Positions 7,310 to 29,294 of a stretch of DNA of 64,000 nt are shown here, one piece after another. This stretch comes from an uncultured delta proteobacterium (GTDB taxonomy: Bacteria > Desulfobacterota > Syntrophia > Syntrophales > UBA2185), in assembly GCA_963729715.1 (NCBI GenBank), contig CAVSPA010000005.1, positions 64,001-128,000 of the forward strand, given 5' to 3'. The translations under genes were made by a program, and so were the position numbers. The notes beneath the pieces were generated by a model that saw only the letters and a list, made by a program, of their open reading frames with translations, was not told the DNA's origin and did no database searches. Positions within the stretch are counted from its first letter, which is position 1, and each line of letters opens with the position of its first letter.

Positions 7310-7448
7310 TGCTTATTTCCTTATTTGTGATATTAGGCACAAATCTGTATTACAGCCGTTCGCAAAATGCAATACATTTTTAAAAAGTCGTTGATTAGGA
7401 AAGCGAAATACTGTATAGGAAGGTGTTTCGTGATAGGGTCGCGCATAA

Positions 7449-8516
<1,068 letters not shown>

Positions 8517-8688
8517 TTCCACACCTTTCGGAATATTCTAATTTTCAAATAGGACCAGGACAGATTATCATTTTGTGTCCGAAAGATGAAATCTATCACG
8601 ATTCCCGAAATATAAGTTGCCTCCGTTGCAGGGCCGGTTCGAGGGACAATTTCCCCGTCGTTGCCGCCCATATTTTTGCTGTAGAAAT

Positions 8689-9537: not shown

Positions 9538-9590
9538 GAAGGGCGTCTCCGTGTCCTGACTTTCTGCGGATGCCCCATAGGTAATAAGAA

Positions 9591-10103
9591 GTGACCTATT
9601 ATATATCATTGCCTTTTTTTTCTTTGGCGCTCATAGTTTCGCAGATGATGATTGAGGATATTGTCTTCTCCGGGAAAATAGCTGTGGAACTGTCCTTGAT
9701 AGTGGTAATATATGCAGGCTTCCGATTCGATGTGCTGAGAGGGGGAATTCTGAGCTTTATCCTTGGATTCATACGTGACTGCTTAACATGCCCGCTTTCC
9801 GGACTTTATACTCTCATATATGTGCTTGTATTTTTGATTTCAAAGCTCGCTTCTCTCAGGATATCGCCGGGACAGCCATTCTTGATTGCGAGTTTGACAC
9901 TTGTATGTGCGCTTTTTGAAGGCATGATAATCATTTTATTTCACCCGTTGTTATATGGGGGCGGCATTTCCACCCATGCAATTTTAGCTTATTTACCACA
10001 GATATTAATTGTCAGCGTCCTTAGCCCTGTTTTGTTTAGGGCCTTCCATTGGACTGAGGCGGCATTGAATGGCAGAGAATCACAGCCGGTTAAGCGGACA
10101 TGA
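9591..10103 (+). CDS. mreD: Rod shape-determining protein MreD
   Basis: Hydrophobic 170 aa between mreC and mrdA; GFIRD motif. Confidence 0.85.
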   Translation: MTYYISLPFFSLALIVSQMMIEDIVFSGKIAVELSLIVVIYAGFRFDVLRGGILSFILGFIRDCLTCPLSGLYTLIYVLVFLISKLASLRISPGQPFLIASLTLVCALFEGMIIILFHPLLYGGGISTHAILAYLPQILIVSVLSPVLFRAFHWTEAALNGRESQPVKRT

Positions 10104-11970
10104 ACCCGGCGATTTCAGAAAAAAGTTCAAGGTAACATTCGCTATTGTGTCTATCATGTTAGCGATCCTGACAATGAGGATGTGGCATCTTCAGGTAATC
10201 AGGGGAGATGAACTGACACAGAGATCGGAAAACAATAGCGTACGCTTGCGGAAAATTAAGCCCCTGAGGGGCGTGATCCTGGACACCAATGGTCAGGTTC
10301 TGGTCGATAATCAGCCATCATTTGACATCATTTTTGTGCCTAACCGCAACCGGAATATCGATGAGGCCGCATATAGGTTAAGGCAATTATTTGCTCAAAG
10401 ATCCCTCACGCTTTCGGCAGACCTGCCTGCCTTGGGGAAGAGAGGCTGGTTTCCGCCTGTCAAACTTGAGAAAAACATTTCAATGGAAAAACTTGCCATC
10501 GTGGAAACGCATGCCTCTGATTTGCCGGGCATAACCATTGATGTGGTGCCTATCAGACAATATTTAAATGGAGAAATGGTAGCCCATATAATAGGTTATA
10601 CTGGTGAGGTCAGCCGGGAGGAGTTGCAAAAGGACATGTCGGGTGATTTCAGTGTGGGTGATATTACGGGCAAAGACGGCTTGGAGAAACAGTTGGATCA
10701 GTATCTTAAGGGCAAGAGCGGAGCGGAGCAGGTCGAGGTGAATGTAATGGGCAAAGAGGTCAAAGTAATCGGCAAGATTGAACCTGTTTCCGGATATAAT
10801 GTTATTCTTACCATTGATGCCCAGCTGCAGAAGGTGGCCTGGGAGGCCCTTCAAGATAGAGCCGGATCGGTTGTTGTCATTGATCCCCGTGATGGCGCTG
10901 TCCTTGCACTTGCAAGCTCGCCGGCTTTTGATCCAAACCTATTCAACGGAGGAATCTCGGCGGAAGATTGGGACGATCTCTCGAATGATTCATCACACCC
11001 CATGGGAAACAGGGCCATCGCCGGTCAATATCCTCCCGGATCCACGTACAAGCTCATTGTGGCGGCCGCAGCCCTGGAAGAGGGATTGATCACACCGGAT
11101 ACAACGTTCAACTGCAACGGATCATTTCAGTTCGGCAACAGAACATACAAGTGCTGGCAGAAGCACGGGCACGGTAGGGTCAATCTGCATCGCGCCATCG
11201 TCGAATCCTGCGACGTATATTTCTACAATGTGGGCAAGCTTGTCGGCGTTGACAAACTGGCCGAATATGCCCGCAGATTCGGATTGGGCCAGCCAACAGG
11301 AATTGATCTTCCCCGGGAGAAGAGCGGCCTCATCCCGACCAAACAGTGGAAACAGCAGAGATTCAAAGAAACATGGCAGCTGGGCGAAACTATATCGATC
11401 TCCATCGGGCAAGGCTTTAATCTTGTGACGCCAATTCAATTGGTGAACGCCTATGCTTCATTAGCCAATGGAGGAACTATCTACCAGCCTCGGCTTGTAA
11501 AGCGCATCGAAACTGCCGATGGCCGGGTACTAAAGGCATTTGAACCTCAGCAAAAAGGCAGTATAGGCCTGAGCGAGAAGAACATTGAGATTTTGAAGTA
11601 CGGTCTATGGGGTGTGGTGAATGAAGGAGGGGGAACGGGTCACGCCCTGAAGAGAAGGGAAGAGGACGTCTCTGGAAAAACAGGCACCGCCCAGGTTGTA
11701 AGCATGCCGGATAATGAAAAAGGGCACAGGCGGAAATTCATTGCTTCTAAACACGGTGATCACGCTCTTTTTGTGTGCTACGCACCTTATAAGAATCCGG
11801 AAATAGCTATCGCCGTCATCATGGAGCATGCCGGCCATGGAGGCTCCGCAGCCGCTCCCATAGCAAGAAAGATAATCGATGCCTACTTTGAGCGTAAGAA
11901 TTCCGCAAATAAGAAGAGCCAGCCGCCGCTGACCATCAGCCAGAAATCGCAGGCAGGTGACAGCCGATGA
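10069..11970 (+). CDS. mrdA: Penicillin-binding protein 2
   Basis: PGSTYK (SxxK), SCD (SxD/N), KTGT motifs. Confidence 0.96.
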   Translation: MAENHSRLSGHEPGDFRKKFKVTFAIVSIMLAILTMRMWHLQVIRGDELTQRSENNSVRLRKIKPLRGVILDTNGQVLVDNQPSFDIIFVPNRNRNIDEAAYRLRQLFAQRSLTLSADLPALGKRGWFPPVKLEKNISMEKLAIVETHASDLPGITIDVVPIRQYLNGEMVAHIIGYTGEVSREELQKDMSGDFSVGDITGKDGLEKQLDQYLKGKSGAEQVEVNVMGKEVKVIGKIEPVSGYNVILTIDAQLQKVAWEALQDRAGSVVVIDPRDGAVLALASSPAFDPNLFNGGISAEDWDDLSNDSSHPMGNRAIAGQYPPGSTYKLIVAAAALEEGLITPDTTFNCNGSFQFGNRTYKCWQKHGHGRVNLHRAIVESCDVYFYNVGKLVGVDKLAEYARRFGLGQPTGIDLPREKSGLIPTKQWKQQRFKETWQLGETISISIGQGFNLVTPIQLVNAYASLANGGTIYQPRLVKRIETADGRVLKAFEPQQKGSIGLSEKNIEILKYGLWGVVNEGGGTGHALKRREEDVSGKTGTAQVVSMPDNEKGHRRKFIASKHGDHALFVCYAPYKNPEIAIAVIMEHAGHGGSAAAPIARKIIDAYFERKNSANKKSQPPLTISQKSQAGDSR

Positions 11971-13076
11971 AAATCGATCGCCGGCTACTTTTCAATTTTG
12001 ATTGGACGCTGCTCTTTCTCATACTGGCGATCAGTGTGGTCGGTCTCTTGAATATCTACAGCGCCGGCTACAGCCTGGACAATTTCAGGCAGGAGACCCT
12101 TTATCTAAAACAAGCGCAATGGATCTTCATCGGCCTGGTACTAATGGGGGTCATCATATGCTTTGATTACAGATTCATCTGTCGGTTTGCCTATGTAATC
12201 TATGCCGCTTCTGTTCTGCTGCTTGTCCTGGTATCGCTGTACGGATATGCCACCCACGGTTCTCAGCGGTGGATCATCTTGGGAGGATTTTTCTTCCAGC
12301 CCTCAGAGCTGGTAAAGCTCTCGATTATTATCGCCCTAGCAAAATATTTCGATGACCATATCATAGAAGGACGCTACAAGTTAAGAGAGCTCTATATACC
12401 GTTTCTTATCGTGGTGGTCCCGTTTCTCTTTATCTTGAAGCAGCCTGATCTCGGCACCGCTTTGATCCTTATGTTCCTTATACTGTCGATAACTTTTTTC
12501 ATCGGTATAGAGTGGAAATCACTGCTCTTAGCCTGCACCGGGGGGATAATGCTGATACCGATGTCGTGGCTGTTTCTGAGGGATTACCAGAAGGAAAGGG
12601 TCATGACATTTTTCAATCCGGAGAATGATCCCCTGGGATCGGGTTATCATATTCTTCAATCCATAATTGCCGTCGGTTCAGGAGGTATTTTCGGTAAAGG
12701 CTACCTGAAGGGAACCCAGACGCAGTTGAAATTCTTGCCGGTACAGCAGACTGATTTTGTGTTCTCCGTTTTTGCGGAGGAGTGGGGCTTTATCGGAGGA
12801 GTTGTCCTTGTCGCCATGTTTCTCATACTCATACTGTGGTGTCTGAAAATTGCCTTGCATTCGCGGGATCTCTTGGGAATGTTAATGTCGTTCGGCATAA
12901 CAATGCTTGTCTTCTGGGAGGTATTCATCAATATCGGGATGGTGTTGGGCATGCTTCCCGTTGTCGGCATCCCGCTGCCTTTCTTAAGTTATGGAGGTTC
13001 GTCGATGGTTGTTCTCATGGCGGCCATGGGCTTGTTGTTAAATGTCAGCATGAGAAGGTTTATCCTCTATCCGTAA
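11967..13076 (+). CDS. rodA: Rod shape-determining protein RodA
   Basis: QPSELVK, QPDLGT, TDFVFS, PLPFLSYGGSS SEDS motifs. Confidence 0.96.
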   Translation: MKIDRRLLFNFDWTLLFLILAISVVGLLNIYSAGYSLDNFRQETLYLKQAQWIFIGLVLMGVIICFDYRFICRFAYVIYAASVLLLVLVSLYGYATHGSQRWIILGGFFFQPSELVKLSIIIALAKYFDDHIIEGRYKLRELYIPFLIVVVPFLFILKQPDLGTALILMFLILSITFFIGIEWKSLLLACTGGIMLIPMSWLFLRDYQKERVMTFFNPENDPLGSGYHILQSIIAVGSGGIFGKGYLKGTQTQLKFLPVQQTDFVFSVFAEEWGFIGGVVLVAMFLILILWCLKIALHSRDLLGMLMSFGITMLVFWEVFINIGMVLGMLPVVGIPLPFLSYGGSSMVVLMAAMGLLLNVSMRRFILYP

Positions 13077-13167
13077 TATGTATGGGAGAGTAAGATTTAT
13101 TTGTCATTGGTTTTGATGTCATTGAAGTCATCAGGACACGAAGGTGCCAAAGACTGGGGGCAGGTCG

Positions 13168-13569
13168 ATGTTCAGCAAAAAGAAGAAAGATGAAGAAATC
13201 AAGGCCTTTCTTGGAAAAGGCGCAGAATTTACGGGAAAACTGATATTCAATGGAGCTGTCCGCATAGACGGTGATTTCAACGGCGAGATATTTGGGGAGG
13301 GAACCTTGGTCGTAGGTGATGGCGCTCACGTAGAAGCGGATATAAATGTCGCAAGCATCATAATCAGCGGCGATGTCCATGGCCAGATTGAATGCAAGGA
13401 AAGGATTGAAATCTATCCTCCAGGAAAAGTCCTTGGGAATGTAAAAGCGCCGCGATTTATAATGAGGGAAGGCGCCGTCTTCGAAGGAACGTCGAGAATG
13501 GAGAGCAGCAGCAAGTTGGAAAAACACAAAGTCAACAGCAAATCCAAAGCATTAAATGCGGAAGAGTGA
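13168..13569 (+). CDS. Bactofilin (polymer-forming cytoskeletal protein)
   Basis: FLGKGAEFTGKL, VRIDGDFNGEI, GAVFEG beta-helix repeats. Confidence 0.9.
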   Translation: MFSKKKKDEEIKAFLGKGAEFTGKLIFNGAVRIDGDFNGEIFGEGTLVVGDGAHVEADINVASIIISGDVHGQIECKERIEIYPPGKVLGNVKAPRFIMREGAVFEGTSRMESSSKLEKHKVNSKSKALNAEE

Positions 13570-13851
13570 CATCCCGGCGGGACAAAACCGCATTCACCCA
13601 AAAAGTGCTTGACATTAACGCACGGTTGTGATTAGAAGACCGCGATTTTTACACGCATCTTTGGGGGTTCTTGAGGTTACTCGTGTACTCAGTTCATATC
13701 GCTTTATTTCAGGAAACATTTCTCAAAAAAAGAACCGTCATAAGCTTTTTAGGATCGAAAAAAGGCTAAACTGAAAAAGCCGAGTGGCAGGAGTCTATCC
13801 TTTCACGGGTTTTCTGAACTTCAAAGCAATCTTTTAGTGTGAGGCAGAACA

Positions 13852-14280
13852 GTGATCAAAATAGATTATACAATGTTAATCCAAATGGTCAATTTTCTTC
13901 TCTTGATTGTCATCCTGAATCAACTCCTCTATAAGCCGATCTTGGGCATAATTGACAGAAGAAAGAAACAAGCACAGGATACTGAAGAAGAGATAAAGCG
14001 CCTCAATCAATCAGTCGAGGAGAGAATCGCGGCGTACGAGGAGAAGCTTCGCCAGGCAAAGACGGACGCTTTGGAGAAAAAGACCGAGATCATCAAGGAA
14101 GGGGCCGAGCAGGCAAAGGGCCTCATCGAGGCCGCAAGAAGCGAGATCCCGGGGATGATGGAACAGTTTCACGGTGAGATGAACAGGGAAGTCTCCGAAG
14201 CCAGAAGCATTCTTACCGGTCAGTCGCAGAAAATATCAGTTGAGATTGCCGAGAAATTGTTGGGAAGGAGTCCCCGATGA
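13852..14280 (+). CDS. atpF: ATP synthase F0 subunit b'
   Basis: QMVNFLLLIVILNQLLYKPI then coiled coil; first gene of atp cluster. Confidence 0.9.
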   Translation: MIKIDYTMLIQMVNFLLLIVILNQLLYKPILGIIDRRKKQAQDTEEEIKRLNQSVEERIAAYEEKLRQAKTDALEKKTEIIKEGAEQAKGLIEAARSEIPGMMEQFHGEMNREVSEARSILTGQSQKISVEIAEKLLGRSPR

Positions 14281-14888
14281 TAAAATGGTTTTCGGAGGAT
14301 CTGCTTAGTCGATCTTATTTACGCTATTTTCTTTTATCAATCCTGGCCCTTATTCTCACCTCTACCGTCGCATATGCCTCGGAAGGTGGAGGTCATGAAG
14401 ACACTGTGAAGCTCTGGATTGATTTCGCCTGGAGGATATTTGACTTTACTATTCTGATTGGGTTCCTTTACTGGGCTGCTGCAAAAAAAATCAAGGAGTT
14501 TTTCTTCGACAGGCGAGACAACATCAAGGCCACCATCGAAGAAAAAATAACTGAAAAGGATGAGACGGAGAAGAAATTCAGGGAATACTCCTTGAGGCTT
14601 GACAAGGCCACTGAGGAAATAAAGGGCATCTTCGAGATGATAAAGGCCCAGGGATTGACAGAAAAAGAAAAGATAATCGAAGACGCCAAGAAGGCAGCCG
14701 CGAAGATGATAGAAGATACACAGGCGAGAATGGAACAGGAACTTAAGGCTGCCAGAAACCAGTTGCGGTCGGAAGCCGCGGAGCTGTCCGTGGCAATGGC
14801 AGAAGAGCTTCTGAAGAAGAATATAAACCAGGGGCTTCACGAAAACATGGTGAAAGACTATCTCGATAAGGTGGTGAAAAAACATTGA
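14277..14888 (+). CDS. atpF: ATP synthase F0 subunit b
   Basis: AYASEGGGH leader, DFAWRIFDF TM region, coiled coil. Confidence 0.9.
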   Translation: MIKWFSEDLLSRSYLRYFLLSILALILTSTVAYASEGGGHEDTVKLWIDFAWRIFDFTILIGFLYWAAAKKIKEFFFDRRDNIKATIEEKITEKDETEKKFREYSLRLDKATEEIKGIFEMIKAQGLTEKEKIIEDAKKAAAKMIEDTQARMEQELKAARNQLRSEAAELSVAMAEELLKKNINQGLHENMVKDYLDKVVKKH

Positions 14889-15430
14889 GCAGCAGCAATA
14901 TCGCAAAGCGTTATGCACGGGCGTTTTTTGACATAGCCAGGGAAGATGGGCTTTATGAAAAGTACTACGGCGAATTGACGCTTTTTTCTTCCGTTGTCAA
15001 AGAGAATAAGGATTTGCGGGAATTATTGTTGAACCCTATATTCGATCATGCAGAAAAAAGAGCCGTTGTGGATTCGCTTCTCGCTAAGATAAATATATCC
15101 GTCATAACGGCAAATTTCCTGAAGCTCCTCGTGGACAAGCGAAGAATAGGCATTCTTCCCGATATAGAAAGCTGTTACCGGAAATTTATGGACGATGCCC
15201 TGAAAACAATCAGGGTTGATGTCAAGACCGCCTTCCCTTTATCTACTGAACTTTCCGAAAAGCTGCAGAAGCGCATGGAGGAAATAACGGGTAGAAAAGT
15301 GGAAATGGCTGTTTCAGAAGATGCATCATTGTTGGGTGGCATAGTCGTAGGCGTAGGGGATACGATGTACGATGGCAGCATTAAAACTCAACTGCACAAT
15401 ATCAGGAATCTCTTAGGGGAGGAAATATAG
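14885..15430 (+). CDS. atpH: ATP synthase F1 subunit delta
   Basis: IAKRYARA, LLGGIVVGVGDTMYDGSIK. Confidence 0.95.
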   Translation: MSSSNIAKRYARAFFDIAREDGLYEKYYGELTLFSSVVKENKDLRELLLNPIFDHAEKRAVVDSLLAKINISVITANFLKLLVDKRRIGILPDIESCYRKFMDDALKTIRVDVKTAFPLSTELSEKLQKRMEEITGRKVEMAVSEDASLLGGIVVGVGDTMYDGSIKTQLHNIRNLLGEEI

Positions 15431-15433
15431 AGC

Positions 15434-16948
15434 ATGGAGAAAATCAGGGCAGAAGAAATAAGCGACATCATCTCCAAACAGATCAGAGACTATGAAAAGA
15501 AACTGGACGTAAGCGAAGTTGGAACTGTCCTGTCTGTGGGAGACGGTATTGCCAGGGTTTACGGCGTGGAAAATGCGATGGCCATGGAATTGCTGGAGTT
15601 CCCGGGAGGGATACTCGGTATGGTCCTCAACCTGGAAACCGACAACGTCGGTGTCGCCATCCTGGGAGAGGTCACCCATATTAAAGAAGGGGATATTGTA
15701 AAGAGAACGGGCAGGATCGCCCAGGTTCCCGTGGGAGAGGCGGTGCTCGGCCGGGTAATTGATGGCACCGGTGCGCCGATTGACGGCAAAGGTCCCATTG
15801 AGGCTACCGAGTTCCGCAGGATAGAGATGATCGCTCCCGGCGTCGTGCAGCGCCAGCCCGTCAACACGCCTATGTATACCGGCATCAAGGCTATCGATGC
15901 CATGACGCCCATCGGAAGGGGTCAAAGAGAGCTTATCATCGGCGACAGGCAGATCGGAAAAACCGCGATCTGCGTGGACTCCATCATCAGGCAGAAGGAT
16001 ACCGGCGTTAAGTGCATTTATGTCGCCATCGGCCAGAAGAAATCCACAGTGGCCCAGGTGGTGGAAAACCTTCGCAAGAACGGTGCCATGTCCTATACCT
16101 GTGTCATCGCGGCATGCGCCAGCGATCCGGCGACCCTGCAATACATCGCAGCCTATTCCGGTTGCAGCATCGGCGAATATTTCCGGGACAGGAAACAGGA
16201 TGCACTGATCATCTACGATGATCTCTCCAAACAGGCTGTCGCTTACCGCCAGATATCGCTGCTTCTGAGAAGACCCCCAGGACGTGAAGCCTTCCCGGGA
16301 GATATTTTCTATAACCACTCCCGTCTGCTGGAACGCGCCGCCCGTGTGAGCGAAGATCTCGGCGGCGGATCCCTTACGGCCCTGCCCATAATTGAGACCC
16401 AGGCAGGCGACGTCTCTGCGTATATTCCGACAAACGTTATTTCCATCACAGATGGTCAGGTGTATCTCGAACCGAGCCTATTCTTTTCCGGTATCAGACC
16501 TGCAATCAACGTCGGTCTGTCAGTTTCGCGAGTCGGTGGCGCAGCGCAGGTCAAGGCCATGAAACAGGTTGCAGGGAGGCTGAAACTCGAGCTCGCCCAG
16601 TATCGTGAACTGGCGGCCTTTGCCCAGTTCGGTAGTGACCTCGATAAGGCAACGCAGGCGCAGCTCGAACGAGGCGTGCGTCTGGTGGAGATATTGAAGC
16701 AGCCCCAGTTCCAACCCAGGACGCTGTCGCAGCAGGTTGCCATCCTTTTTGCAGGCACCAGGGGCTTTCTGGACAAATACCCGGTCGACAAACTGAAGGA
16801 ATACGAGCCTCAGCTCCTGAGCTTCATCGCCAGTAAATACCCCGAAGTCAACCGGGAGGTTGAAGAGAAAAGGGAGATCAGTGCAGACCTCGAGAAGAAG
16901 ATGAAAGACGTATTGACGGAGTTTGAAACTGTTTTTGTCACGGCGTAG
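15434..16948 (+). CDS. atpA: ATP synthase F1 subunit alpha
   Basis: [29 protein letters not shown]. Confidence 0.99.
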
Positions 16949-17002
16949 AAAATCGGAAGACATCTCAGGAAATAGAACACGTAAAGGGAAAAGGGAGCGT
17001 TA

Positions 17003-17878
17003 ATGGCTTCATTAAAGGATATCAGAAGAAAGATTGTCGCGGTTTCCAAAACGAAGCAGATCACCAGAGCCATGAATATGGTGGCTGCCTCGAAACTGAA
17101 AGCCGCCCAGTTGAGGATGGAGAATTTTCGTCCTTATGCATTGAGGTTCATGGATGTGCTCACCAGCCTGGCACTTCGTGTAGACCCTGAAACCCACCCC
17201 CTGCTCGCTGTCAGGGATCCGAAGAGAATAAGGGTTATCATCATGACCTCTGACAGAGGCTTGTGCGGCGGTTTCAATACGAACTTGATCAAGGCCGCGG
17301 AAAGATTCGTCCGGGAGAAGACCGGCGAAGGCAAAGAGGTGCAATTGATTGCCGTCGGAAGGAAAGGGAGAGATTATTTCCGAAAAAAAGTGAAGCTCGC
17401 TAAAGATTGGTCTGACGTCTTTGGCAAATTCGATATAACCCTCGCCGTAAAAATTTCCGACGAAATCATTCCCCCCTTCATGCAGGCAGAATATGACGAA
17501 CTGTATGTCATATACAACGAATTTAGGAACATTGCCATACAGAGGCCTGCGGTCGTGAGGCTATTTCCCTTGCCCCCCATCGGAAAAGATGAAGATACGG
17601 AGCCTAACGCGAGAATCGATTACATTTATGAACCCTCGGATGAAATCCTGCTCGGGAAGCTCCTTCCCATGTACGTTCATGTTCTGATCTTCCGGGCGCT
17701 CCTCGAAACATCCGCCGGCGAGAACGGCGCACGGATGGTCGCGATGGACAACGCAACAAAGAATTGCGAGGAGATGATCCAAAACCTTACGTTGAGAATG
17801 AATAAAGCGAGACAGGCAACCATTACGGCCGAATTGATGGATATTGTCGGCGGTACGGAAGCCCTGTCGAAGAGCTGA
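17003..17878 (+). CDS. atpG: ATP synthase F1 subunit gamma
   Basis: QITRAMNMVAASK, SDRGLCGGFN, ARQATITAEL. Confidence 0.98.
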   Translation: MASLKDIRRKIVAVSKTKQITRAMNMVAASKLKAAQLRMENFRPYALRFMDVLTSLALRVDPETHPLLAVRDPKRIRVIIMTSDRGLCGGFNTNLIKAAERFVREKTGEGKEVQLIAVGRKGRDYFRKKVKLAKDWSDVFGKFDITLAVKISDEIIPPFMQAEYDELYVIYNEFRNIAIQRPAVVRLFPLPPIGKDEDTEPNARIDYIYEPSDEILLGKLLPMYVHVLIFRALLETSAGENGARMVAMDNATKNCEEMIQNLTLRMNKARQATITAELMDIVGGTEALSKS

Positions 17879-17895
17879 TAAATTAGCCATCATAG

Positions 17896-19317
<1,422 letters not shown>

Positions 19318-19336
19318 TGAGGCCGGAGGATTGCAC

Positions 19337-19747
19337 ATGGCTGACGAATTGATGTTGGAAATTGTTACCCCCGAAAAAATGGCCTTCAGCGGCAAGATAG
19401 AAGAAGTGACGATACCGGGTTCCGAGGGTGAGTTCGGTGTGCTCCGGGGCCATGCGGCGCTCCTGACTTCGATCGATGTCGGTGAATTGAATTTCACGAA
19501 AGACGGCAAGAAGACATACTACGCCGTTAATACCGGCTATACCGAAGTCACCACAGGCAAAGTTACGATCCTCGCGGAAACTGCGGAAAGGGCGGACCTC
19601 ATCGACAAAGAACGGGCAAAAAAGGCAAAAGACACGGCGGAAGCAAAGTTGTCCAAGATGGCCAAGGAAGATGTGGAATACGAACTGATGAGAGCAGCCC
19701 TGGCTAGGGCGATTACAAGGATCAGCGTGGCCGATAAGCACGCTTAG
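19337..19747 (+). CDS. atpC: ATP synthase F1 subunit epsilon
   Basis: [19 protein letters not shown] at 19337 after GGAGG. Confidence 0.96.
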
Positions 19748-19767
19748 TGCGCAAATAGATACAAATG

Positions 19768-19807
19768 AAGAAAGCCAGAAGTTGAGATTTGAACTTCTGG
19801 CTTTCTT
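19768..19807. terminator. Bidirectional intrinsic terminator between convergent atpC and greA
   Basis: AAGAAAGCCAGAAGTT-gagatttg-AACTTCTGGCTTTCTT perfect 16-bp inverted repeat. Confidence 0.85.
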
Positions 19808-19828
19808 GTTCTGAGAATTCCTGCTCCA

Positions 19829-20311
19829 TTATTTTTTCCCCACAACACAGATATCCGCTATCTCAAATTCGCGTGTACCTCCCGGCGTCTTGACGCTGAC
19901 TTCGTCACCCGCACTCTTCCCGATCAGCGCCTTGCCTATAGGTGAGGTCACGGAAATTTTATTCTCTTTGAGATCTGACTCGAAGGGGCCTACAAGCTGA
20001 TAGGTTATGCGGCTCCCCGTATTCGTGTCCTCCAAAGTGACAATCGATCCAAAAACAATCTTGTCTGTCGTTAAACCATCGAGGCTCACAACATATGATG
20101 TGGCGAGATTATTTTCGAGCTCCGCAATCCTGCCCTGCAAAAAAGACTGCCTTTCCTTGGCCGCGGCAAATTCCGCATTCTCCGTTATGTCTCCGTGCGC
20201 CCTAGCCACTTCGATGTCCCGGATATTTTCAGGCAGCGAAACTGTCTTTATATATTCCAGTTCCTTCTTCAATTTTTCGTATCCCGCTTTTGTAATAGGC
20301 ATTTTTGCCAT
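19829..20311 (-). CDS. greA: Transcription elongation factor GreA
   Basis: ARAHGDITENAEF, ISVTSPIGKALIGK. Confidence 0.96.
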   Translation of the reverse strand: MAKMPITKAGYEKLKKELEYIKTVSLPENIRDIEVARAHGDITENAEFAAAKERQSFLQGRIAELENNLATSYVVSLDGLTTDKIVFGSIVTLEDTNTGSRITYQLVGPFESDLKENKISVTSPIGKALIGKSAGDEVSVKTPGGTREFEIADICVVGKK

Positions 20312-20517
20312 ATATTCTCCCTGCCTTGCGCACTTGTATTTGCCAGGATCATAAATCTTAAAAACAGAGGTTGACTTCTAATAGAGAAATAGACAGCTGT
20401 CAAGAAAGATTTACCATGCCCTACCCGGGGGCTGGGGGTCTTGCTATGTCTCCACAAGTATGCTAAAAGGAGCATTCTTTAAGTAGATGCAGAAGTCCAC
20501 AGGCGAATAACATATCC

Positions 20518-21513
20518 ATGATTGATAGCTATAACAGAGAGATTAATTATCTCAGAGTTTCCATCACCGACAGATGCAACCTTCGTTGCAGCTATTGCAT
20601 GCCCAAGGAGGGCGTTTCCCTCATCGGACATGACGACATCCTGAGATACGAAGAAATACTGCGGATCGTCCGCATAGCAGCAGGCATAGGTATCAGCAAA
20701 GTCAGGATAACAGGAGGTGAGCCTCTGGTCAGGCGCGGCGCCTGCGATTTTATCGCCGAGGTCGCGTCCACTGACGGTCTCAATGACATCAGCCTCACAA
20801 CGAACGGAATACTCCTGGCGGACTTTGCGGCAAAACTTTTTGCCGCGGGCGTGAAAAGAATTAACATCAGTCTTGATTCCCTCAATGCCGAAAAGTATGC
20901 CCAAATTACCAGGGGTGGAGACCTCAGTACCGTGCTGGCGGGAATCGATGCGGTTCATAGGATCGGTTTTTCCCCTATCAAGATCAACATCGTGGCAATG
21001 AAGGGATTTAATGAAGATGAGATAATGGATTTCGCCGAACTCAGCCTTCGCAAACCTTACCAGGTCAGGTTCATTGAACTCATGGACGTGGGCCGCCCTG
21101 CCCTCGATCACGGCAGCCGCTATCTTTCCAACACTATTGTCAGGGAATTAATCAACAGGCATTATCTCCTCGAACGGGCCAACGGCACAAGAACCAAAAT
21201 GGATGGGCCTGCAGAGATGTTCAGGATCTCAGGCGGCGCCGGAGAAATCGGTTTCATAAGCCCTTTGAGTCAGCAATTCTGTGATTCATGCAACCGCCTG
21301 AGGCTCACTGCGAACGGCCACCTCCGCGCGTGCCTGCTCTCGGACGAAGACGTCGATCTGAGGGGCCCGCTGCGCAGCGGCTGCAGCGATGCGAATCTGT
21401 CGGAGCTCATCAAGGGGGCTATCGCGAAAAAACCCGTACAACATGCCCTTGCCTGTGATGAAGGCCACCATATAAAGAAGTGTATGAAAGACATGTCTTC
21501 CATAGGCGGTTGA
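20518..21513 (+). CDS. moaA: GTP 3',8-cyclase MoaA
   Basis: CNLRCSYC radical SAM motif, FCDSCNRLR, C-terminal IGG. Confidence 0.97.
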   Translation: MIDSYNREINYLRVSITDRCNLRCSYCMPKEGVSLIGHDDILRYEEILRIVRIAAGIGISKVRITGGEPLVRRGACDFIAEVASTDGLNDISLTTNGILLADFAAKLFAAGVKRINISLDSLNAEKYAQITRGGDLSTVLAGIDAVHRIGFSPIKINIVAMKGFNEDEIMDFAELSLRKPYQVRFIELMDVGRPALDHGSRYLSNTIVRELINRHYLLERANGTRTKMDGPAEMFRISGGAGEIGFISPLSQQFCDSCNRLRLTANGHLRACLLSDEDVDLRGPLRSGCSDANLSELIKGAIAKKPVQHALACDEGHHIKKCMKDMSSIGG

Positions 21514-21571
21514 CATGCAATGCAGGCAATGAAAGACACCTGCGTGAGAAGATAGAGACTGCCTCCTGACC

Positions 21572-21823
21572 CTATCGCGTCTCCCAGTCAATATCCCCGT
21601 CGTCGTAAGTCCGCGCCAGGATTTCCCGGGCCTTCTCCATATCCTTTGCGAGAACCAGAATATCCACTTTACCGAGACCATCGATCGTTATCGCGTAGAT
21701 CGGTCCTACTGCTTCGTATTTCAATTTTGCAGGTATGCCTTCCGTCGTGAGTCTCCCCAAGACAATATTGGCATTCGTCATTCCCGACGCGGTACAGGCC
21801 ACTTCCCATTTTTCCTCATCCAT
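21572..21823 (-). CDS. DUF2007-like small protein
   Basis: ANIVLGRLTTEGIP...GKVDILV...EKAREIL pattern. Confidence 0.7.
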   Translation of the reverse strand: MDEEKWEVACTASGMTNANIVLGRLTTEGIPAKLKYEAVGPIYAITIDGLGKVDILVLAKDMEKAREILARTYDDGDIDWETR

Positions 21824-21990
21824 AGAACCGTTCCTCACTCCCCGGCAATGACATCAGGCGCAGAATTTTGGGACTTATACTGCCAACATGCTATTTTTAT
21901 TGCAAAAAATACCAACCTGCTGACTGTCACTTATCTTATACCATATCCGCCTCCTGCAAGAAAGCGTCATTTCGGGAATTGACTGTCAAA

Positions 21991-22037
21991 ATACTATATA
22001 TTGTAGGCTAAAAATTTTAGGATACATTTAGTTGTAT
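21991..22037. promoter_or_regulatory. Tandem NrdR-box-like palindromes upstream of smc
   Basis: ATACTATATATTGTAG (21991-22006) and ATACATTTAGTTGTAT (22022-22037), 31 bp start-to-start. Confidence 0.5.
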
Positions 22038-22043
22038 TTTTTC

Positions 22044-22072
22044 TTTACAAGGACTATTTCTTCTGTTATTAT
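22044..22072 (+). promoter_or_regulatory. Putative sigma70 promoter of smc
   Basis: TTTACA-N17-TATTAT with extended TG. Confidence 0.5.
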
Positions 22073-22163
22073 TCGGTAAATCCGCTGAGGGTTGGCTCAA
22101 TTGACCCTGGGTGAGTGGATGGTTGGAAGAGTTTTCGTTGTAATCTCAACAGGAAAGAAGAAA

Positions 22164-25100
22164 ATGAGGCTGAAGAGACTTGAGATAGCCGGCTTTAAAT
22201 CCTTCCGGGATAAGGTCGTCCTCGACTTTTCGAAAGGGATCTCCGCAGTAGTCGGTCCCAATGGATGTGGGAAGAGCAATATCGTAGATGCCATCCGCTG
22301 GGCAATGGGTGAACAGCGTATAAAGAGCCTGCGTGGAAAAAAGATGGATGACGTCATTTTCCACGGCGCTGAGAATGCGGCCCCCATCGGCATGAGCGAA
22401 GTATCGATGATCCTCGACAGCAACGGGCGGCAATTCCCCGGGGAATATGCGGAATGCAGCGAGGTCATGATTTCGCGGCGGCTCTTCAGGGACGGCGAAA
22501 GCGAATACGCCATCAACAAGGTGCCCTGCCGGCTTATCGATGTCAGAGACTTCCTCATGGGTACGGGGCTCGGCGTCAGAACCTACTCCCTCGTTGAGCA
22601 GAACAGCGTTGCCAATCTTGTGGAAGCAAAACCCGAAGACAGAAGACAGTTCATCGAAGACGCTGCAGGTATATCGAAATATAAGGTCAGAAAAGAATCG
22701 GCCATGCGGAAGATGGAGGCGACAAAGCAGAACATCCTCCGCTTGAATGATATCATCAGAGAGGTAAAATCACAGCTCAATGCCGTATCGCGGCAGGCCA
22801 AAAGGGCGGAGCAGTACAAGGCTCTGAAGAAGGAAGTGAAAGAGGCCGAACTCGTCCTAGCCCTCCACACATACACGGATCTATCCGGACAGAAGGAAAC
22901 CCTCGGGCAAACGCGCGACTCCCTTAGCAAGAGGGATATGGAATTAACGACCAGCCTGAAAGAACTCGAAGCCTCAATCGAAGGCTTGAAGGCAGAGGTG
23001 CTGGAAAACGAAGCCTCCGTTTCTGAACACCAGGAAAAACTCTATGACATAAGAAACTCGATCAACATAAAGGAACAGGGGATCGAACATCTTAAAGGCA
23101 AAATAAAAGACATCGCCTCGCAGAAACAGAAAAACACGGCCGAGCTGGAGATGCTCCGCACAAGAGCGAAAAATCTGGCCGACGAAGTGGAAACCATCGC
23201 CATAATGGCGGATGAATCCGGCGTGGAGATTGAGAAGGTAAGAGACAATGTCCTCCAAAACCAGGCCAGCCTTGAAGAACTCAAGGCGGCCGCGAAATCG
23301 CTTACCGCGGAACTCGAAGAAAAGAAGATCGAGTTCTTCGAGTTAGCCACGGAAAAGGCGAAAGCGAAAAACACCCTTGTCGGCATCGGGAAGGGTATAG
23401 AAGATATCCGGAAGAGAAAAGAGAGGGACGTCCGAGAAGCAGACGAAAACAGGGAAAGGCTTGCGGAGACCCACCGGAATCTTGATTCCCTGATTGCGGC
23501 CCTAAATACTGATGAGGGCACGCTGGCAAATCTCACGGATAGCGCGGGCATGACTTCCGATGAACTTGAGCGGGCGAAGAATGATCTGCAACTGATCGAC
23601 GAGCGCATCTCGGAGATGAAGGATGAAGCGGGCATGAAATCATCGCGGCTTGCCTCCTTGATAGAGTTGCAGGAAAGCTACGCTTGGTGTTCTGACGGAA
23701 CGAAATCGATAATGCAGGCAAAGAAGGTTGCGAGCCCCGACATGCTGCCCGGCGAGACCTGCCTAGGACTCGTTGCTGACGTTCTGGATGTGCCCCGTGA
23801 ATATGAAACGGCGGTTGAATCCGTCCTGGGGGACAAGCTCCAGTACATGGTGGTCAGAAGTCAGAGAGACGGGATGCTGGCCATCGACTATCTGAAAAGC
23901 TCGTCTTCAGGAAGGGGAACCTTCGTCCCCCTCGAAGTCAGACATCATAATTACGGCTCTTCGGCGGAGTATCTCAAGGATGCGGTGAAACTGATCGACG
24001 TAGTCAATGTTCATCAGGGCTTCGAGAAAATAGCCGACTACCTCTTGGGAGATGTTCTTTTGATACCGAACCTCAACAACGGCGTCTCCCTCTGGGAACG
24101 AAACGGTTTCAGAGGCACCTTCGTTACATCGGAAGGCGACATCATAAATCCGCAGGGAGTGCTGACGGGGGGAAGCAAAACGAACGGCGATAAGAGCCTG
24201 CTTAAGACCAAGCGTGAGATCGCCGAACTGGAAGGAGATGTAGATCGTTTAAATATCTCCCTTGCGGAGGACATTGAAAAGAAGAAGGACGCGATATCTC
24301 TCATCTTGCAATGGGAAGAAGAGCTGGTCCAGCTGCGGTCGGAAATCCGCGATCTGGAACTACTGGTCAACGGCAAGCAGAAAGACCTCGAGAGATTTGA
24401 GGCCGAGATAAGAGGTATCGAACAGAGAATAAAAGTCCTCGATTTCAATTGTGATAATCATCAGGCGGAAGAAGCGGCCGCCCTCGAAGAATGCGCCGCT
24501 ATAGAGAAGCGCATCATTTCCTCCGAAGCCCAGGAAGACACGATGAACACCGCCATGTCCGCCCTCCAGGAGAAGTTGGCAACGCTGAAGACGAAGGTGG
24601 AAGAGCGGGAAGAACATCTCACAGGGGAAAAGATCCAACTCGCGTCTCTCGAAGAAAAGAGAAACGCGGACCTCAAAACCATTGAGAGGTTGGAGGCCGA
24701 CAGTGCGGGCACGTCCCGTGAAATAGATATCAGGACCACGGAGCTTGTGCAGAGTGACCGGGAGATTGAAGATGTGACCGAGCAAATCTCAACGGAACAG
24801 GGTCTGCTCGAACGCCTGTACTCGGAGCATGAGAGCGTCGAAGGCACACTCACGGAGATGAGGCTCTCACAGCAGGAACGGGAAACACTGTTGAGAAACA
24901 GGGACACGGACCTCAGGGAGGTCAAGAAGACCCATGACCAGGTCGTAAAGGAAATGAATGAACTGGAGATAGCTTACCGCGAGCTCACCTTTCAGTCGGA
25001 CAGCTTGCGCCAAGGCATTCAGGAAAAATACTACGTCGATCTCCAAACTCTCGTCCCCGAATTTCAGCGGCTCGATGAACCGGTTCTCGAAGAGCTGACC

Positions 25101-25730
25101 GCCAAGCTGAATAAGGACAGGCAGTTTGTGGAAAACTTCGGCGAAGTGAATCTGCTCGCGCTTAACGAATTTGAGGAACTCAAAGTGCGCTACGAATTCC
25201 TCACAACCCAGGTCGGTGATTTGAACGCCTCGCTTGATTCTCTCCAGGCGACCATTACGAAAATAAACATTGAATCGCGAAAGCGTTTCGCAGAGACCTT
25301 TGAAGCGGTCAACGAGTGTTTCAAGGAAATATTTGCGAGGATATTCCCGGGCGGCAAAGGTGAACTGAAGCTGACGGAGGCTGAAGACATACTGGAGACA
25401 GGCGTGGACATCGATATCGTCATTCCCGGAAAACGCGCGCAGAGTGTCAGCCTGCTTTCTGGTGGAGAAAAATCGCTCGCCGCCATAGCCCTGATTTTCG
25501 CCATTCTCATGTACCGACCTGTTCCGTTCCTGGTCCTGGATGAGGTGGACGCAGCGCTTGACGATGCGAATATAAGCCTGTTTAACAATCTCGTGAAAGA
25601 CATCTCGTCAAACTCCCAGATAATCATGGTCACCCATAACAAGAAGTCCATGGAGGTCGCGGAATATCTGTTCGGCATCACAATGCAGAAGCAGGGTATT
25701 TCCACCATGGTGTCCGTAGCCCTGAACTAA
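22164..25730 (+). CDS. smc: Chromosome segregation protein SMC
   Basis: MRLKRLEIAGFKSF, GPNGCGKSN, hinge, LSGGEK, LDEVDAALD. Confidence 0.97.
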   Translation: MRLKRLEIAGFKSFRDKVVLDFSKGISAVVGPNGCGKSNIVDAIRWAMGEQRIKSLRGKKMDDVIFHGAENAAPIGMSEVSMILDSNGRQFPGEYAECSEVMISRRLFRDGESEYAINKVPCRLIDVRDFLMGTGLGVRTYSLVEQNSVANLVEAKPEDRRQFIEDAAGISKYKVRKESAMRKMEATKQNILRLNDIIREVKSQLNAVSRQAKRAEQYKALKKEVKEAELVLALHTYTDLSGQKETLGQTRDSLSKRDMELTTSLKELEASIEGLKAEVLENEASVSEHQEKLYDIRNSINIKEQGIEHLKGKIKDIASQKQKNTAELEMLRTRAKNLADEVETIAIMADESGVEIEKVRDNVLQNQASLEELKAAAKSLTAELEEKKIEFFELATEKAKAKNTLVGIGKGIEDIRKRKERDVREADENRERLAETHRNLDSLIAALNTDEGTLANLTDSAGMTSDELERAKNDLQLIDERISEMKDEAGMKSSRLASLIELQESYAWCSDGTKSIMQAKKVASPDMLPGETCLGLVADVLDVPREYETAVESVLGDKLQYMVVRSQRDGMLAIDYLKSSSSGRGTFVPLEVRHHNYGSSAEYLKDAVKLIDVVNVHQGFEKIADYLLGDVLLIPNLNNGVSLWERNGFRGTFVTSEGDIINPQGVLTGGSKTNGDKSLLKTKREIAELEGDVDRLNISLAEDIEKKKDAISLILQWEEELVQLRSEIRDLELLVNGKQKDLERFEAEIRGIEQRIKVLDFNCDNHQAEEAAALEECAAIEKRIISSEAQEDTMNTAMSALQEKLATLKTKVEEREEHLTGEKIQLASLEEKRNADLKTIERLEADSAGTSREIDIRTTELVQSDREIEDVTEQISTEQGLLERLYSEHESVEGTLTEMRLSQQERETLLRNRDTDLREVKKTHDQVVKEMNELEIAYRELTFQSDSLRQGIQEKYYVDLQTLVPEFQRLDEPVLEELTAKLNKDRQFVENFGEVNLLALNEFEELKVRYEFLTTQVGDLNASLDSLQATITKINIESRKRFAETFEAVNECFKEIFARIFPGGKGELKLTEAEDILETGVDIDIVIPGKRAQSVSLLSGGEKSLAAIALIFAILMYRPVPFLVLDEVDAALDDANISLFNNLVKDISSNSQIIMVTHNKKSMEVAEYLFGITMQKQGISTMVSVALN

Positions 25731-26156
25731 ACCGTGTAAAATGCCAATAGAGTTTGTCACTTGCTAATAGAGTGTGTCACTGAATGACAAAATGCCCTTA
25801 AGTGACAAACTCTTTTTATCAATAATGCGATATCAAGAAAATAGTCACTTTGCCAAAAGTTCTTGCTATTCCCTCAATAGCAAGAACTTCATTCATTGAG
25901 CTTTCCCTCATCGTAAAGGAAAGTTAGTGGCAATACATCAACCTAATCACCATTAGATTTTACTGGAAAATATGAGTTTGTCTGATCGACAAATTGCTTC
26001 TTTTAGTTAATTAATCAGCGATGAAGATAGATATGCATATAGCAAATACTAATATACATAACTGCTAATCGGCTTAATCTATTGAATACAGCATGAAATG
26101 TGGAAATGCGTGACGATTGCCCGAAATGTCGCATGGGCTCGCTTCATCAGCAGTCG

Positions 26157-26588
26157 CTATTCCTTTTTACCAGCGACCTCCTTATAACTTTTTACGAGCC
26201 GGGTAGCTATCACACCTGCCAGTCGCTTCATGATAATCAGGCTTTCAGCAGGATGCCTCTGGAATACCCGCATCAGCCGCTCTGCGTCAATTTTTAGTAC
26301 CTTGCTTTCTTTCACGCATTCCGCTGCGGCCGTGTACTCATTAGGTTCTACAAGCGACGACCAGCCGAACACCGACCCCGTCTTGACCATGGGGAAGGAG
26401 AAGTCCTTTTGCCCTCGAATGATCAGATTGATCTCTCCTTCTTCAAGGATATACAGAAAATCCGCAACATCACCTTCTCGAAAAACCACATATCCTGCCG
26501 GGTAACTCTCCTGAGTGACGAGTTCAGATATTTCACCAATCATGTGTGAAGGGATTCCCTGGAAGAGCTCCACCTCCTGGATAAACAT
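26157..26588 (-). CDS. Stand-alone cyclic-nucleotide-binding (Crp N-terminal) domain protein
   Basis: ELFQGI, VVFREGDVADFLYILEEG, FGWSSL, YTAAAEC; no HTH; ATG at 26588 after GGAGG. Confidence 0.85.
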   Translation of the reverse strand: MFIQEVELFQGIPSHMIGEISELVTQESYPAGYVVFREGDVADFLYILEEGEINLIIRGQKDFSFPMVKTGSVFGWSSLVEPNEYTAAAECVKESKVLKIDAERLMRVFQRHPAESLIIMKRLAGVIATRLVKSYKEVAGKKE

Positions 26589-26621
26589 ATCAGTCACCTC
26601 CTCTATGAATCTTCTTCTTGC

Positions 26622-27107
26622 TCAATCTTCGCTCAAAACAGAGAGTCCTCGCTCACCAATCAGAATAATCTCGGTGTGGGTCAGACGGGTGGCTACTACC
26701 CTTGCTGTCGCTTGCATGAAATTATATCCTAATGTGGCATCTTCATTTAGCAGCTCCCTGAGCGTAGCTCCATCGAAGACGATGGCTTTCGAATCATCGA
26801 TGCATCGGGCGCCAAGGGTGTACACGTAAGGTTCAATAACAGTTGACCATCCCATGGCATCTCCCTTTGTAACTATGTCCACGGTGACCTGCATAGGTGG
26901 TCTGGCAGTACCCATGTAAGTATCCATGCCCAGAACTACCTTTCCCCCTTCCAACAGGTAGAGGTTTTGTGCCGGGTCTCCCTTTTTCCACAACTGAGAA
27001 CCTGCCCTGTAAGATTCTTCAGTAGCTATATCCGCCAGTTTCTTGATTTGCTCGTCACTGAAGCCATGAAAAAATTTGAATCCTTTTAAGATATTTACCG
27101 AAACCAT
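26622..27107 (-). CDS. Stand-alone cyclic-nucleotide-binding domain protein
   Basis: FFHGFS, KGDPAQNLYLLEGG, MGWST, YTLGARC; no HTH. Confidence 0.85.
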   Translation of the reverse strand: MVSVNILKGFKFFHGFSDEQIKKLADIATEESYRAGSQLWKKGDPAQNLYLLEGGKVVLGMDTYMGTARPPMQVTVDIVTKGDAMGWSTVIEPYVYTLGARCIDDSKAIVFDGATLRELLNEDATLGYNFMQATARVVATRLTHTEIILIGERGLSVLSED

Positions 27108-27152
27108 GGATTGTCACCTCCTTTCTGGGAAGAAGAACTCTGTGATTCCAGA

Positions 27153-27590
27153 TCAATCTTTTGTTTCGAATCCCACGGCGGTGAAATAGATTGCGCGATC
27201 GAAAAACAGGACGGACCGATTGATGAGATCTATTGCCTGGTGAAGATCCAGAGCTGTATCCAAGAGACCTGCGGAACGCACGAGCAGCCAAATGTGGCGT
27301 CTCGTGATGATGAGCGCCTGAATGACTTCCGACAAGGCGAATCCCTCCTGGCGCCGCTGCTTGCCAAGGGCTATGTAAATTTTTTCAATCTCTTTTTTGG
27401 TAGTTTCATTAGACATCCATTTGTCAAACTGGCTGTAAACACGGAAAGCTCTCTGATAGAGTTGCTTTTCATCATAGGTCTGATAGGTCTTGGTTCCGAG
27501 ATGTTCCTTTACATCCTTCAGCCAGCGTTTTGTCAACATGTCGGCATTGTGTTCAACAAGCTCCACCAATTTTCTGGATAGCACTTTCAT
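27153..27590 (-). CDS. All-helical protein, RsbRD-N / histidine-kinase N-terminal-like
   Basis: LVELVEHNADMLTKRWL...LGKQRRQEGFALSEV...FFDRAIY pattern; good RBS. Confidence 0.6.
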   Translation of the reverse strand: MKVLSRKLVELVEHNADMLTKRWLKDVKEHLGTKTYQTYDEKQLYQRAFRVYSQFDKWMSNETTKKEIEKIYIALGKQRRQEGFALSEVIQALIITRRHIWLLVRSAGLLDTALDLHQAIDLINRSVLFFDRAIYFTAVGFETKD

Positions 27591-27690
27591 AGTCTCCCTC
27601 CTTCAATAGAAAGTATAGCGTTTCCTGAGGTTAAGTGCTGGAACACGAAAAGAATTTCAACCCTGATCCACTAATGTTAACCTTAAAAAC

Positions 27691-27706
27691 TGCAATACTG
27701 ATGCCA
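27691..27706 (-). promoter_or_regulatory. Sigma54 (-24/-12) promoter
   Basis: Minus strand TGGCATCAGTATTGCA: GG-N10-GC, about 100 bp upstream of the 27590 start. Confidence 0.75.
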
Positions 27707-27769
27707 TATACTTTTCTTAAATCATTCTAATGATATATGATGTCTGCGGAACATCTTTGCCTGCATCTA

Positions 27770-27806
27770 GGGGTAACATTACCCCCACCTGGGGGTTTTA
27801 TTCCCC
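27770..27806. promoter_or_regulatory. Tandem palindromic sites, putative enhancer for a sigma54 activator
   Basis: GGGGTAA-CA-TTACCCC (27770-27785) and GGGGGTTTTATTCCCC (27791-27806), upstream of the sigma54 box across an AT-rich spacer. Confidence 0.55.
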
Positions 27807-28349
27807 GTAAGAAACAGTGTCTTGACGCTTATTTGTTAAGCTGAAGCCAGTAGCGACGTATGGCCAACCAAAGTTCCAGAACTTATGTCAGGAAGCCTTA
27901 TATACTGGAGAAGGTTGGTCTGGCAGTAAGGAAAAGACTTGACAAAAGATAAGTCAAAAATATTTCCAACAGTACAAATGGAAATCATTGATTCTGAATG
28001 ATAACGCAGTGCACAAGGTGTTAGCGATAATCCAGACTAGTCCTAATTGGACACTCACTATCAAGTTACATAGAGGTTAGGTCGCACAAATAATGCCAAT
28101 AGAAATTCTCACTAATGCTAACTTACCAATAGAGTGACAATTTCTATTAGCATTTCGCGTCGGCTAAGATATTGATTTCACATAGCCGAGAGTGACACAG
28201 TCTATTGGCAGTTGGCAACCGCGCTTAAGCATTCCATCCTTTACATCTCAGAATAAAAATTGTTATACATTAACCATGTCTTTTCTTCTCGCCCCCTTTG
28301 CGGCGGACGAAATGAGGTACTTTTCAGAATTTTAAAAGCGGATGGATAA

Positions 28350-29294
28350 ATGGGAAGCGATACGGAAAGCAAAGGCTTTTTTGAAAGACTGAAGGCAGGC
28401 CTTGCCCGGACAAGAAACGCCTTCATCAAAAATATTGATGATATTATCCTCGGAGAAAGGGTCATCAGCCAGAAGCTCTTTGACGAGCTCGAGGAAACGC
28501 TTATCATGGCTGATGTCGGCCCTGTTTTCACGTACGAGCTCATCGAAAAAATGAAAGAACAGGCCAAGAGAAACGAGCTCGGAGACGCGGAGCTACTCAG
28601 GAAGGTGCTCCGCGATACGATCACAGATACGCTGAAAAGAAATGAGGCACCTCTTCAAAATCCGAAGAATGAACTTTTTACCATCATGGTGGTGGGCGTC
28701 AACGGCACAGGCAAGACCACGACAATCGGAAAACTCGCAAACGCCTTGAAAAAAGATGGGGCGTCCCCCATGCTCGTCGCAGCTGACACCTTCAGGGCCG
28801 CCGCTATCGAACAGCTTGAGGTCTGGAGCCGGAGGGTGGATGCGCCTCTCATCAAGCAGAAGACCGGCGCTGATCCTTCCGCCGTTGTCTTCGATGCCAT
28901 TGTCGCGGCCAAGGCCCGGAAAGCCGACGCCGTTATCATCGACACCGCAGGCAGGCTTCACACCAAGGTCAATCTGATGGAAGAGCTCAAGAAGATGAAG
29001 CGCATTATAGAAAGGGAGCTGCCGAACGCCCCGCACGAGATCCTTCTTGTCCTTGATGCCACGACGGGGCAGAATGCCATCGTCCAGGCAAAGATGTTCA
29101 ACGACGAAATCGGCGTGACGGGAATTATATTAACCAAACTCGACGGAACTGCGAAGGGCGGCGTGATTATAGGGATTGCCAGGGAGCTTAACATTCCCGT
29201 CCGGTATATCGGTATCGGAGAGAGGCTCGATGACCTGAAACCCTTCAAGAGCGCGGAATTCACGGACGCCCTCTTCGAACAGGACGCCCGGTAA
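28350..29294 (+). CDS. ftsY: Signal recognition particle receptor FtsY
   Basis: GVNGTGKTTT, DTFRAAA, DTAGR, TKLDGTAKGG. Confidence 0.98.
   Translation: MGSDTESKGFFERLKAGLARTRNAFIKNIDDIILGERVISQKLFDELEETLIMADVGPVFTYELIEKMKEQAKRNELGDAELLRKVLRDTITDTLKRNEAPLQNPKNELFTIMVVGVNGTGKTTTIGKLANALKKDGASPMLVAADTFRAAAIEQLEVWSRRVDAPLIKQKTGADPSAVVFDAIVAAKARKADAVIIDTAGRLHTKVNLMEELKKMKRIIERELPNAPHEILLVLDATTGQNAIVQAKMFNDEIGVTGIILTKLDGTAKGGVIIGIARELNIPVRYIGIGERLDDLKPFKSAEFTDALFEQDAR

Follow-up and report, generated by a model that had tools for sequence, protein, structure and literature searches.

A transposase-free cassette behind smc in an uncultured Syntrophales bacterium, with asymmetric ends that recur at smc and ssb in relatives

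It appears somewhat probable that the 2.5-kb cassette lying behind smc in the window (the whole 64,000-nucleotide stretch of DNA analyzed here) was inserted by a DDE transposase acting in trans, and that it was steered there, in the manner of Tn7, by a selector reading the conserved coding end of smc. That the cassette is mobile we infer from its ends, its target duplication and the occupied and empty sites in relatives. It spans 25735-28217 (2483 bp) with TG..CA termini, and the terminal 27-mers agree at 22 of 27 positions. The smc stop codon TAA ends at 25730 and is directly abutted by the left ACCG, which recurs exactly outside the right end. Termini, match and duplication had been described in the first-pass annotation, a reading of the letters alone, and were borne out; the additional motif copies it had listed are present within 1-2 bases of the positions given. 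The 20-bp motif occurs six times inside the cassette (A1-A3 and B1-B3). The features are as follows.

22092..25730, + strand: smc, the host target gene, as the listed ORF (likely true start near 22167); its 3' end is the presumed anchor
25731..25734, + strand: left target duplication ACCG, exact
25735..26114, + strand: target-proximal (A) end module, about 380 bp, with the TG terminus and close-packed sites; 80% over 385 columns to L092
25742..25761, + strand: site A1, 20 bp, starting 7 bp inside the terminus; predicted transposase site
25762..25781, + strand: site A2, 20 bp, abutting A1
25801..25820, - strand: site A3, inverted and degenerate
25852..25901, no strand assigned: strong hairpin, a possible terminator between smc and the convergent cargo
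26123..28001, - strand: cargo block, 1.88 kb; 87.8% over 1894 columns to the end-less locus L006 (genome G008)
26157..26597, - strand: stand-alone cNMP-binding domain protein, 146 aa (PF00027, E 2e-15)
26622..27107, - strand: stand-alone cNMP-binding domain protein, 161 aa (PF00027, E 5e-10)
27153..27590, - strand: RsbRD_N/HisK_N-like sensor-type protein, 145 aa (PF14361, E 5e-5, at the cut-off)
28018..28217, - strand: target-distal (B) end module, 200 bp; 85.5% over 200 bp to L029 (genome G003), 83% to L088 and L091
28094..28113, + strand: site B3, inverted relative to B1 and B2
28133..28152, - strand: site B2, 58 bp from B1
28165..28177, - strand: perfect IHF consensus between B1 and B2, positions 41-53 from the terminus, predicted to be bound (consensus from the accessible text of PMC10201428)
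28191..28217, - strand: site B1 (28191-28210) with the TG terminus (28211-28217)
28218..28221, + strand: right target duplication ACCG, exact
28350..29294, + strand: ftsY, host gene, directly after smc in empty relatives

The motif is not a chance repeat: the left 27-mer occurs at a level of at least 22/27 in just four places, itself included, on both strands of the 3.76-Mb genome, and the core motif was found in 6 of 339 genomes, all of the same family (a reversed control pattern gave one match). A public 151-bp contig, which may come from the source sample, crosses the left junction with 0 differences, and in a public run a contig of depth 67 reads across the site. A circle junction was not seen in the contigs of four runs, where coverage is thin. 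The hairpin at 25852-25901 has 14-bp perfect arms (25857-25870 and 25876-25889) and a z score of -5.9 (0 of 200 shuffles). A promoter and terminator scan gave matches at chance level.

Pfam searches agree with the first reading that the cassette holds three signalling-type genes and no transposase; five short frames in the non-coding parts had no Pfam match and the cassette had no Rfam match. The build is modular. The A module is common to L092, an element with other cargo, and the B module to elements in G003, L088 and L091 (83-86%), again with other cargo. The three genes of the cassette occur without ends elsewhere in five relatives, and loci L006-L010 contain no motif. Cargo differs between elements at smc (G008 has a PAS histidine kinase there). 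WD40-caspase, Dam methylase with an ATPase, DUF4124/Lcl proteins and DHDPS are further cargo at this site, and the 17-kb insert of G015 appears from its ORFs to hold metabolic genes only. Cargo is presumably exchanged between the constant end modules. Apart from the 2.5-kb cassette the inserts measure 3.3 to about 20 kb.

In a DNA-level search across 61 genomes, smc and ftsY were neighbours in most relatives, and the smc-ftsY junction was read in 18 of 21 family relatives. In eleven of the 18 nothing is inserted and the site is present once. Five carry ends of the same family (G003, G008, G019, G021 and, in degenerate form, G015), and G005 and G017 carry unrelated direct-repeat inserts without the motif. 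Metagenome loci L092, L098 and L101 add three more smc-side ends. The terminus lies 4 bp past the smc stop codon in six of eight measured ends and 5 bp past it in two. In G007, an assembly with 9% contamination, the junction is empty, and a far end lies in front of a second ftsY on a different contig. Records with the motif beside smc or ftsY are labelled Syntrophales or delta proteobacterium. The first-pass annotation had proposed a non-autonomous mobile cassette, which is upheld by the 11 of 18 empty sites, the other cargo and the genes without ends elsewhere. It had suggested a search for the empty site between smc and ftsY, which was found in those 11 relatives, and a comparison of the ends with the genome and its relatives, which yielded other cargo and no autonomous istAB element. 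It had also named three observations that would speak against its reading. The same genes were not found at smc without the repeats and the empty site is not absent; the third, that the motif never lies beside a transposase, holds so far.

Duplication letters differ between elements. ACCG flanks the cassette and ACGC the element in G008, each on a single contig; CCTG flanks L098/L091, two contigs of one metagenome whose pairing is presumed. Different letters, each matched on both sides, indicate separate insertions, and one ancestral event cannot easily yield them. On an smc tree of 22 rows and a short 450 columns, from which L101 was omitted for its partial smc, occupancy takes four changes, and the starred or strong branches force only two.

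The motif also lies on a second contig of the source genome (C12), 24 bp upstream of ssb. The far end there is beside thiC, about 20 kb from the ssb end, and the DNA between the two ends includes a type II secretion cluster among other genes; in most relatives thiC directly neighbours ssb. A ends were found at ssb in 6 of 21 readable loci (the source genome, G003, G004, G006, G019 and the second ssb of G001), and the ssb-thiC island of the source genome and G006 was inherited from their common ancestor. Two genomes of another family in the same phylum (G510 and G613) have tandem sites before ssb, and no far end was found in the DNA fetched for them. From the ssb ATG the A end is 21-24 bp away in one of the two families and 14-17 bp away in the second, whereas its distance to the conserved ssb NK codons is 27-32 bp in both. 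The constant NK distance suggests that the ssb coding sequence serves as the targeting anchor. Site and orientation are fixed in 8/8 smc-side and 8/8 ssb-side ends, every family-level motif match that was opened sits at smc or ssb, and L088 and G003 have stacked ends separated by 4 bp.

A single old insertion at each site, no longer mobile, with recombined cargo and loss in the empty lineages, would account for the island inherited jointly by the source genome and G006, for the decayed or single ends in G015, G019, G021, G510 and G613 and for the failure to find a helper; the repeats could likewise be regulator boxes. We consider either version very unlikely, because the differing two-sided duplications, the 4- versus 5-bp offsets, the stacked ends, the clean single-copy empty sites among close kin and the occurrence at two loci in two families argue for repeated insertion.

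The C12 island (G000:C12 about 5980-25878, loci L001 and L002, between thiC and ssb, same end family) also carries DUF2844/DUF3443, PagL-like, RCC1-repeat and PIN genes and has an internal degenerate end near 23095. It appears to part ssb from its likely native promoter, and the end may supply a new one. Positions 1-8200 of C12 and about 500-8700 of C15 hold one and the same sequence, inverted relative to each other (through assembly overlap or a duplication), so the thiC-side end was counted once. G510 (L256:9960-10240) has three tandem sites before ssb, and after them come a tRNA-like 3' fragment and a large island of defence type.

The two ends of these elements are built differently. In 16 of 16 gene-adjacent ends a site begins 7 bp inside a TG-type terminus and the close-packed end faces the target gene; abutting copies of the site, with a 20-bp period, are frequent. 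In the far ends a spacer separates site 1 from site 2, which lies at 58-59 bp, and site 3 is inverted. The spacer contains an IHF consensus (position 41-42) that is perfect in 7 of 10 far ends and has 7-8 of 9 letters in the others, a count that overstates independence because the far ends are related by descent (three of the seven perfect ones, on the thiC side, are one inherited island end). The background is 96 consensus matches per genome strand. The fixed columns of the consensus are conserved in 8-10 of 10 far ends and the neighbouring columns in 4-8 of 10. The left ends of I-F CAST show the same arrangement together with IHF dependence (PMC10201428, accessible text). The targeting of two genes, the fixed orientation, the stacking and the asymmetric ends with their IHF consensus had all been missed in the first reading.

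The duplications are exact and 4 bp long in four cases. G003 has a 5-bp duplication with a mismatch and, at its stack, an imperfect pair. The ssb island is flanked by 6 bp in G006 and by 6 bp with one mismatch in the source genome, and L090 has an 18-bp spacer. An integrative element moved by a tyrosine recombinase was considered, in which the repeats would be arm-type sites beside an IHF site. The attachment site of phage lambda has that layout, an IHF site with repeated sites. The direct-repeat inserts at the same smc end in G005 and G017 and two tyrosine recombinase genes 1.5 kb inside the G003 element also fit, but those inserts lack the motif and the recombinase pair is present in one element only. 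A constant core at both junctions, which such an enzyme should leave, is absent, and the repeat letters change with the target. With conserved TG..CA termini that lie exactly 7 bp beyond the first site, the changing letters indicate a staggered cut and not a fixed core, and a tyrosine-recombinase element is scarcely likely.

The preferred reading, insertion by a transposase in trans, calls for a helper elsewhere. TniQ was found neither in the source genome nor in any of 17 family relatives; in the order it was found in 1 of 191 genomes, with an unrelated end, a match indicating that the search is functional. In an earlier TniQ search of the source genome and five relatives there was no match, and the controls were likewise blank. 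The Mu/TnsB C-terminal domain PF09299 was detected in 0 of 21 family relatives, and its match in the source genome belongs to a Mu-like prophage remnant that lacks the motif. Across family and order, PF09299 was present in 36 of 339 genomes at 41 places. Those inspected (20 long regions and eight 3-kb loci) are mostly Mu-like prophages with a few Tn7-like or ExeA-type elements; among the matches listed there was no full-score motif and none at smc or ssb. A scan of Mu-like prophages of the order gave no site of comparable score among the matches listed. TniB profile matches proved to be ExeA or other ATPases and were rejected as helpers. A simple finder detected no CRISPR array in the source genome, and nothing longer than 18 nt there matched the target regions; cas genes and spacers were not found there either. 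The genomes are incomplete MAGs, so a helper may lie elsewhere.

The IS21 family has non-autonomous derivatives, and 4-bp as well as variable duplications are known for it. The cassette could derive from IS21, with ends for IstA/IstB in a family that gained a target preference through its own selector or a host factor. Such duplications fit this origin, IS21 is abundant (five types in the source genome), and an istA fragment lies about 500 bp inside one far end, at L090. TG..CA termini and repeated sites are IS21 features in the accessible text of PMC10122671. The mostly 4-bp duplication is compatible with an IS21-like transposase. However, no istAB with cassette-type ends was found in the seven IS21 types inspected (five in the source genome, one near thiC in G003 and a parB-istA-istB type matching L090), whose ends are all unrelated. 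The IS21 repeats described in the accessible sources are paired at both ends with a 23-bp period and are not asymmetric with an IHF spacer. We therefore rate an IS21 origin as rather unlikely. The L090 istA fragment was rejected as a helper remnant, as the matching parB-istA-istB type (80-83% aa) has unrelated ends. The proposal that the cassette is an IS21 whose istAB was replaced by cargo is unsupported, and its IS21-like size, once taken as a clue, is incidental given the size range of the other inserts. The judgment that the neighbouring IS21 (58958) is not the parent holds, its ends being different.

Phage Mu has three sites per end, one of them inverted, and a bending-protein spacer in one end, and it inserts nearly at random with a 5-bp duplication. 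The cassette resembles Mu ends and mini-Mu in the site and spacer arrangement and differs in targeting and duplication. It resembles Tn7 in that a conserved gene fixes the spot and orientation, the close-packed end faces the target, cargo is variable and islands are built; the ends are also asymmetric, with repeated predicted transposase sites behind a short terminal sequence. Unlike Tn7, with its 5-bp duplications, these elements have mostly 4-bp ones (range 4-6), no tnsABC or tniQ in any copy or host searched, targets at the smc 3' end and the ssb 5' side, and termini that are often TG rather than TGT. The stacked copies in L088 and G003 are hard to reconcile with Tn7 target immunity. In the accessible text of PMC11406308, Tn7 and all related elements make 5-bp duplications. 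A type I-F3 CAST (Tn6677; PMC10201428, in part) similarly has, at just one of its ends, an IHF consensus lying between the first two sites; unlike for the CAST, no cas genes, array or spacer were found in the source genome, and the duplication length differs. IS21 shares a short 4-5 bp duplication, and it shares the TG..CA termini and repeated sub-terminal sites (PMC10122671, accessible portion; IS5376 of this family makes 5 bp in the same text). IS21 elements show little target specificity. They differ, in the portions of PMC10122671 and PMC10293859 available, in the strict two-site targeting, the end asymmetry and the 20-bp period seen here.

In the favored mechanism, the 20-bp repeats would bind a transposase of the TnsB/MuA/IstA class, and IHF would bend the far end and join its first two sites. 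A selector (a TnsD/TniQ-like protein or a guide) would bind the last smc codons or the first ssb codons and place the cut 4-5 bp past the stop codon of smc or, at ssb, 27-32 bp from the NK codons, which would leave both reading frames intact. A staggered cut, mostly of 4 bp, would give the duplication. The helper would sit on an element that these genomes lack or that failed to assemble in them. The working is Tn7-like but the 5-bp rule fails, and the targeting is unmatched in IS21, so the elements were filed as neither. They may, tentatively, represent an undescribed DDE transposon family of Desulfobacterota with a 4-bp stagger, IHF-organised asymmetric ends and selectors for the smc 3' and ssb 5' ends, although we hold this to be doubtful.

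Non-autonomous transposon derivatives and gene-end attachment sites are already known. Sites at glmS, parE, nrdB and comM are described for Tn7 and Tn7-like elements (accessible text of PMC11014353, PMC10293859 and PMC11406308). In the accessible parts of the open literature searched, neither smc nor ssb was found as a target, nor the combination of a 4-bp duplication, an IHF end and strict targeting; smc as a target is absent from the main text, as available, of PMC10293859, PMC11406308, PMC8649781 and a 2025 archaeal preprint. Tn7 and CAST tools derive from site-directed transposons, and new target selectors are actively sought. The cassettes define two attachment sites, a full end anatomy and a duplication length, and so offer precise bait in the hunt for a helper; the ends already carry cargo of up to about 20 kb. 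Without a helper the cassette system is an orphan footprint. An IstA/IstB-like helper would make this the first lineage of IS21 to possess a target selector. The cassettes also illustrate how signalling genes, toxin-antitoxin pairs and an entire type II secretion cluster are acquired by syntrophic bacteria at two safe sites.

A pattern scan of the genome contig collection gave 9 stretches, and metagenomes gave 29, of which about 11 are real ends and the rest single coding matches. Scans of viral contigs gave 1, 0 and 0 matches, the one being a lone coding-region match. In a phylum sample 18 of 251 genomes had the pattern, with controls at a similar rate and only G510 real; in the class of G510 it was found in 0 of 61. 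Blastn against plasmids and phages gave no match, and no end-like sequence was found in the 120 bp after dnaB of the source genome.

Several other mobile elements were seen. The smc-end inserts in G005 (L027:1130-2060) and G017 (L030:1343-2800) are of a different kind, with direct repeats of the smc 3' end, and that of G005 encodes a nucleotidyltransferase-HEPN type pair; they indicate that insertions reach the smc junction, a hotspot, by more than one mechanism. Within an smc-site element, the cargo at L104:11524-13297 encloses a tyrosine recombinase gene pair that is probably a mobile element in its own right. An IS21-type element in G079 (L282:665-4275; also L281 and L283) has an extra upstream ParB-HTH gene (PF17762) and an ORF before istA-istB; the ends of the three are ordinary IS21-like. 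Mu-like prophages are frequent in the order, and a remnant at G000:C4 about 404000-415700 (L168) has repressor, transposase, ATPase and a few structural genes. The window itself contains an integrase-led island at 31926-62653 with type I restriction-modification genes and a helicase, in which an ATPase gene is broken by an IS21 at 58958-61500 and an IS110-like transposase lies at 39529.
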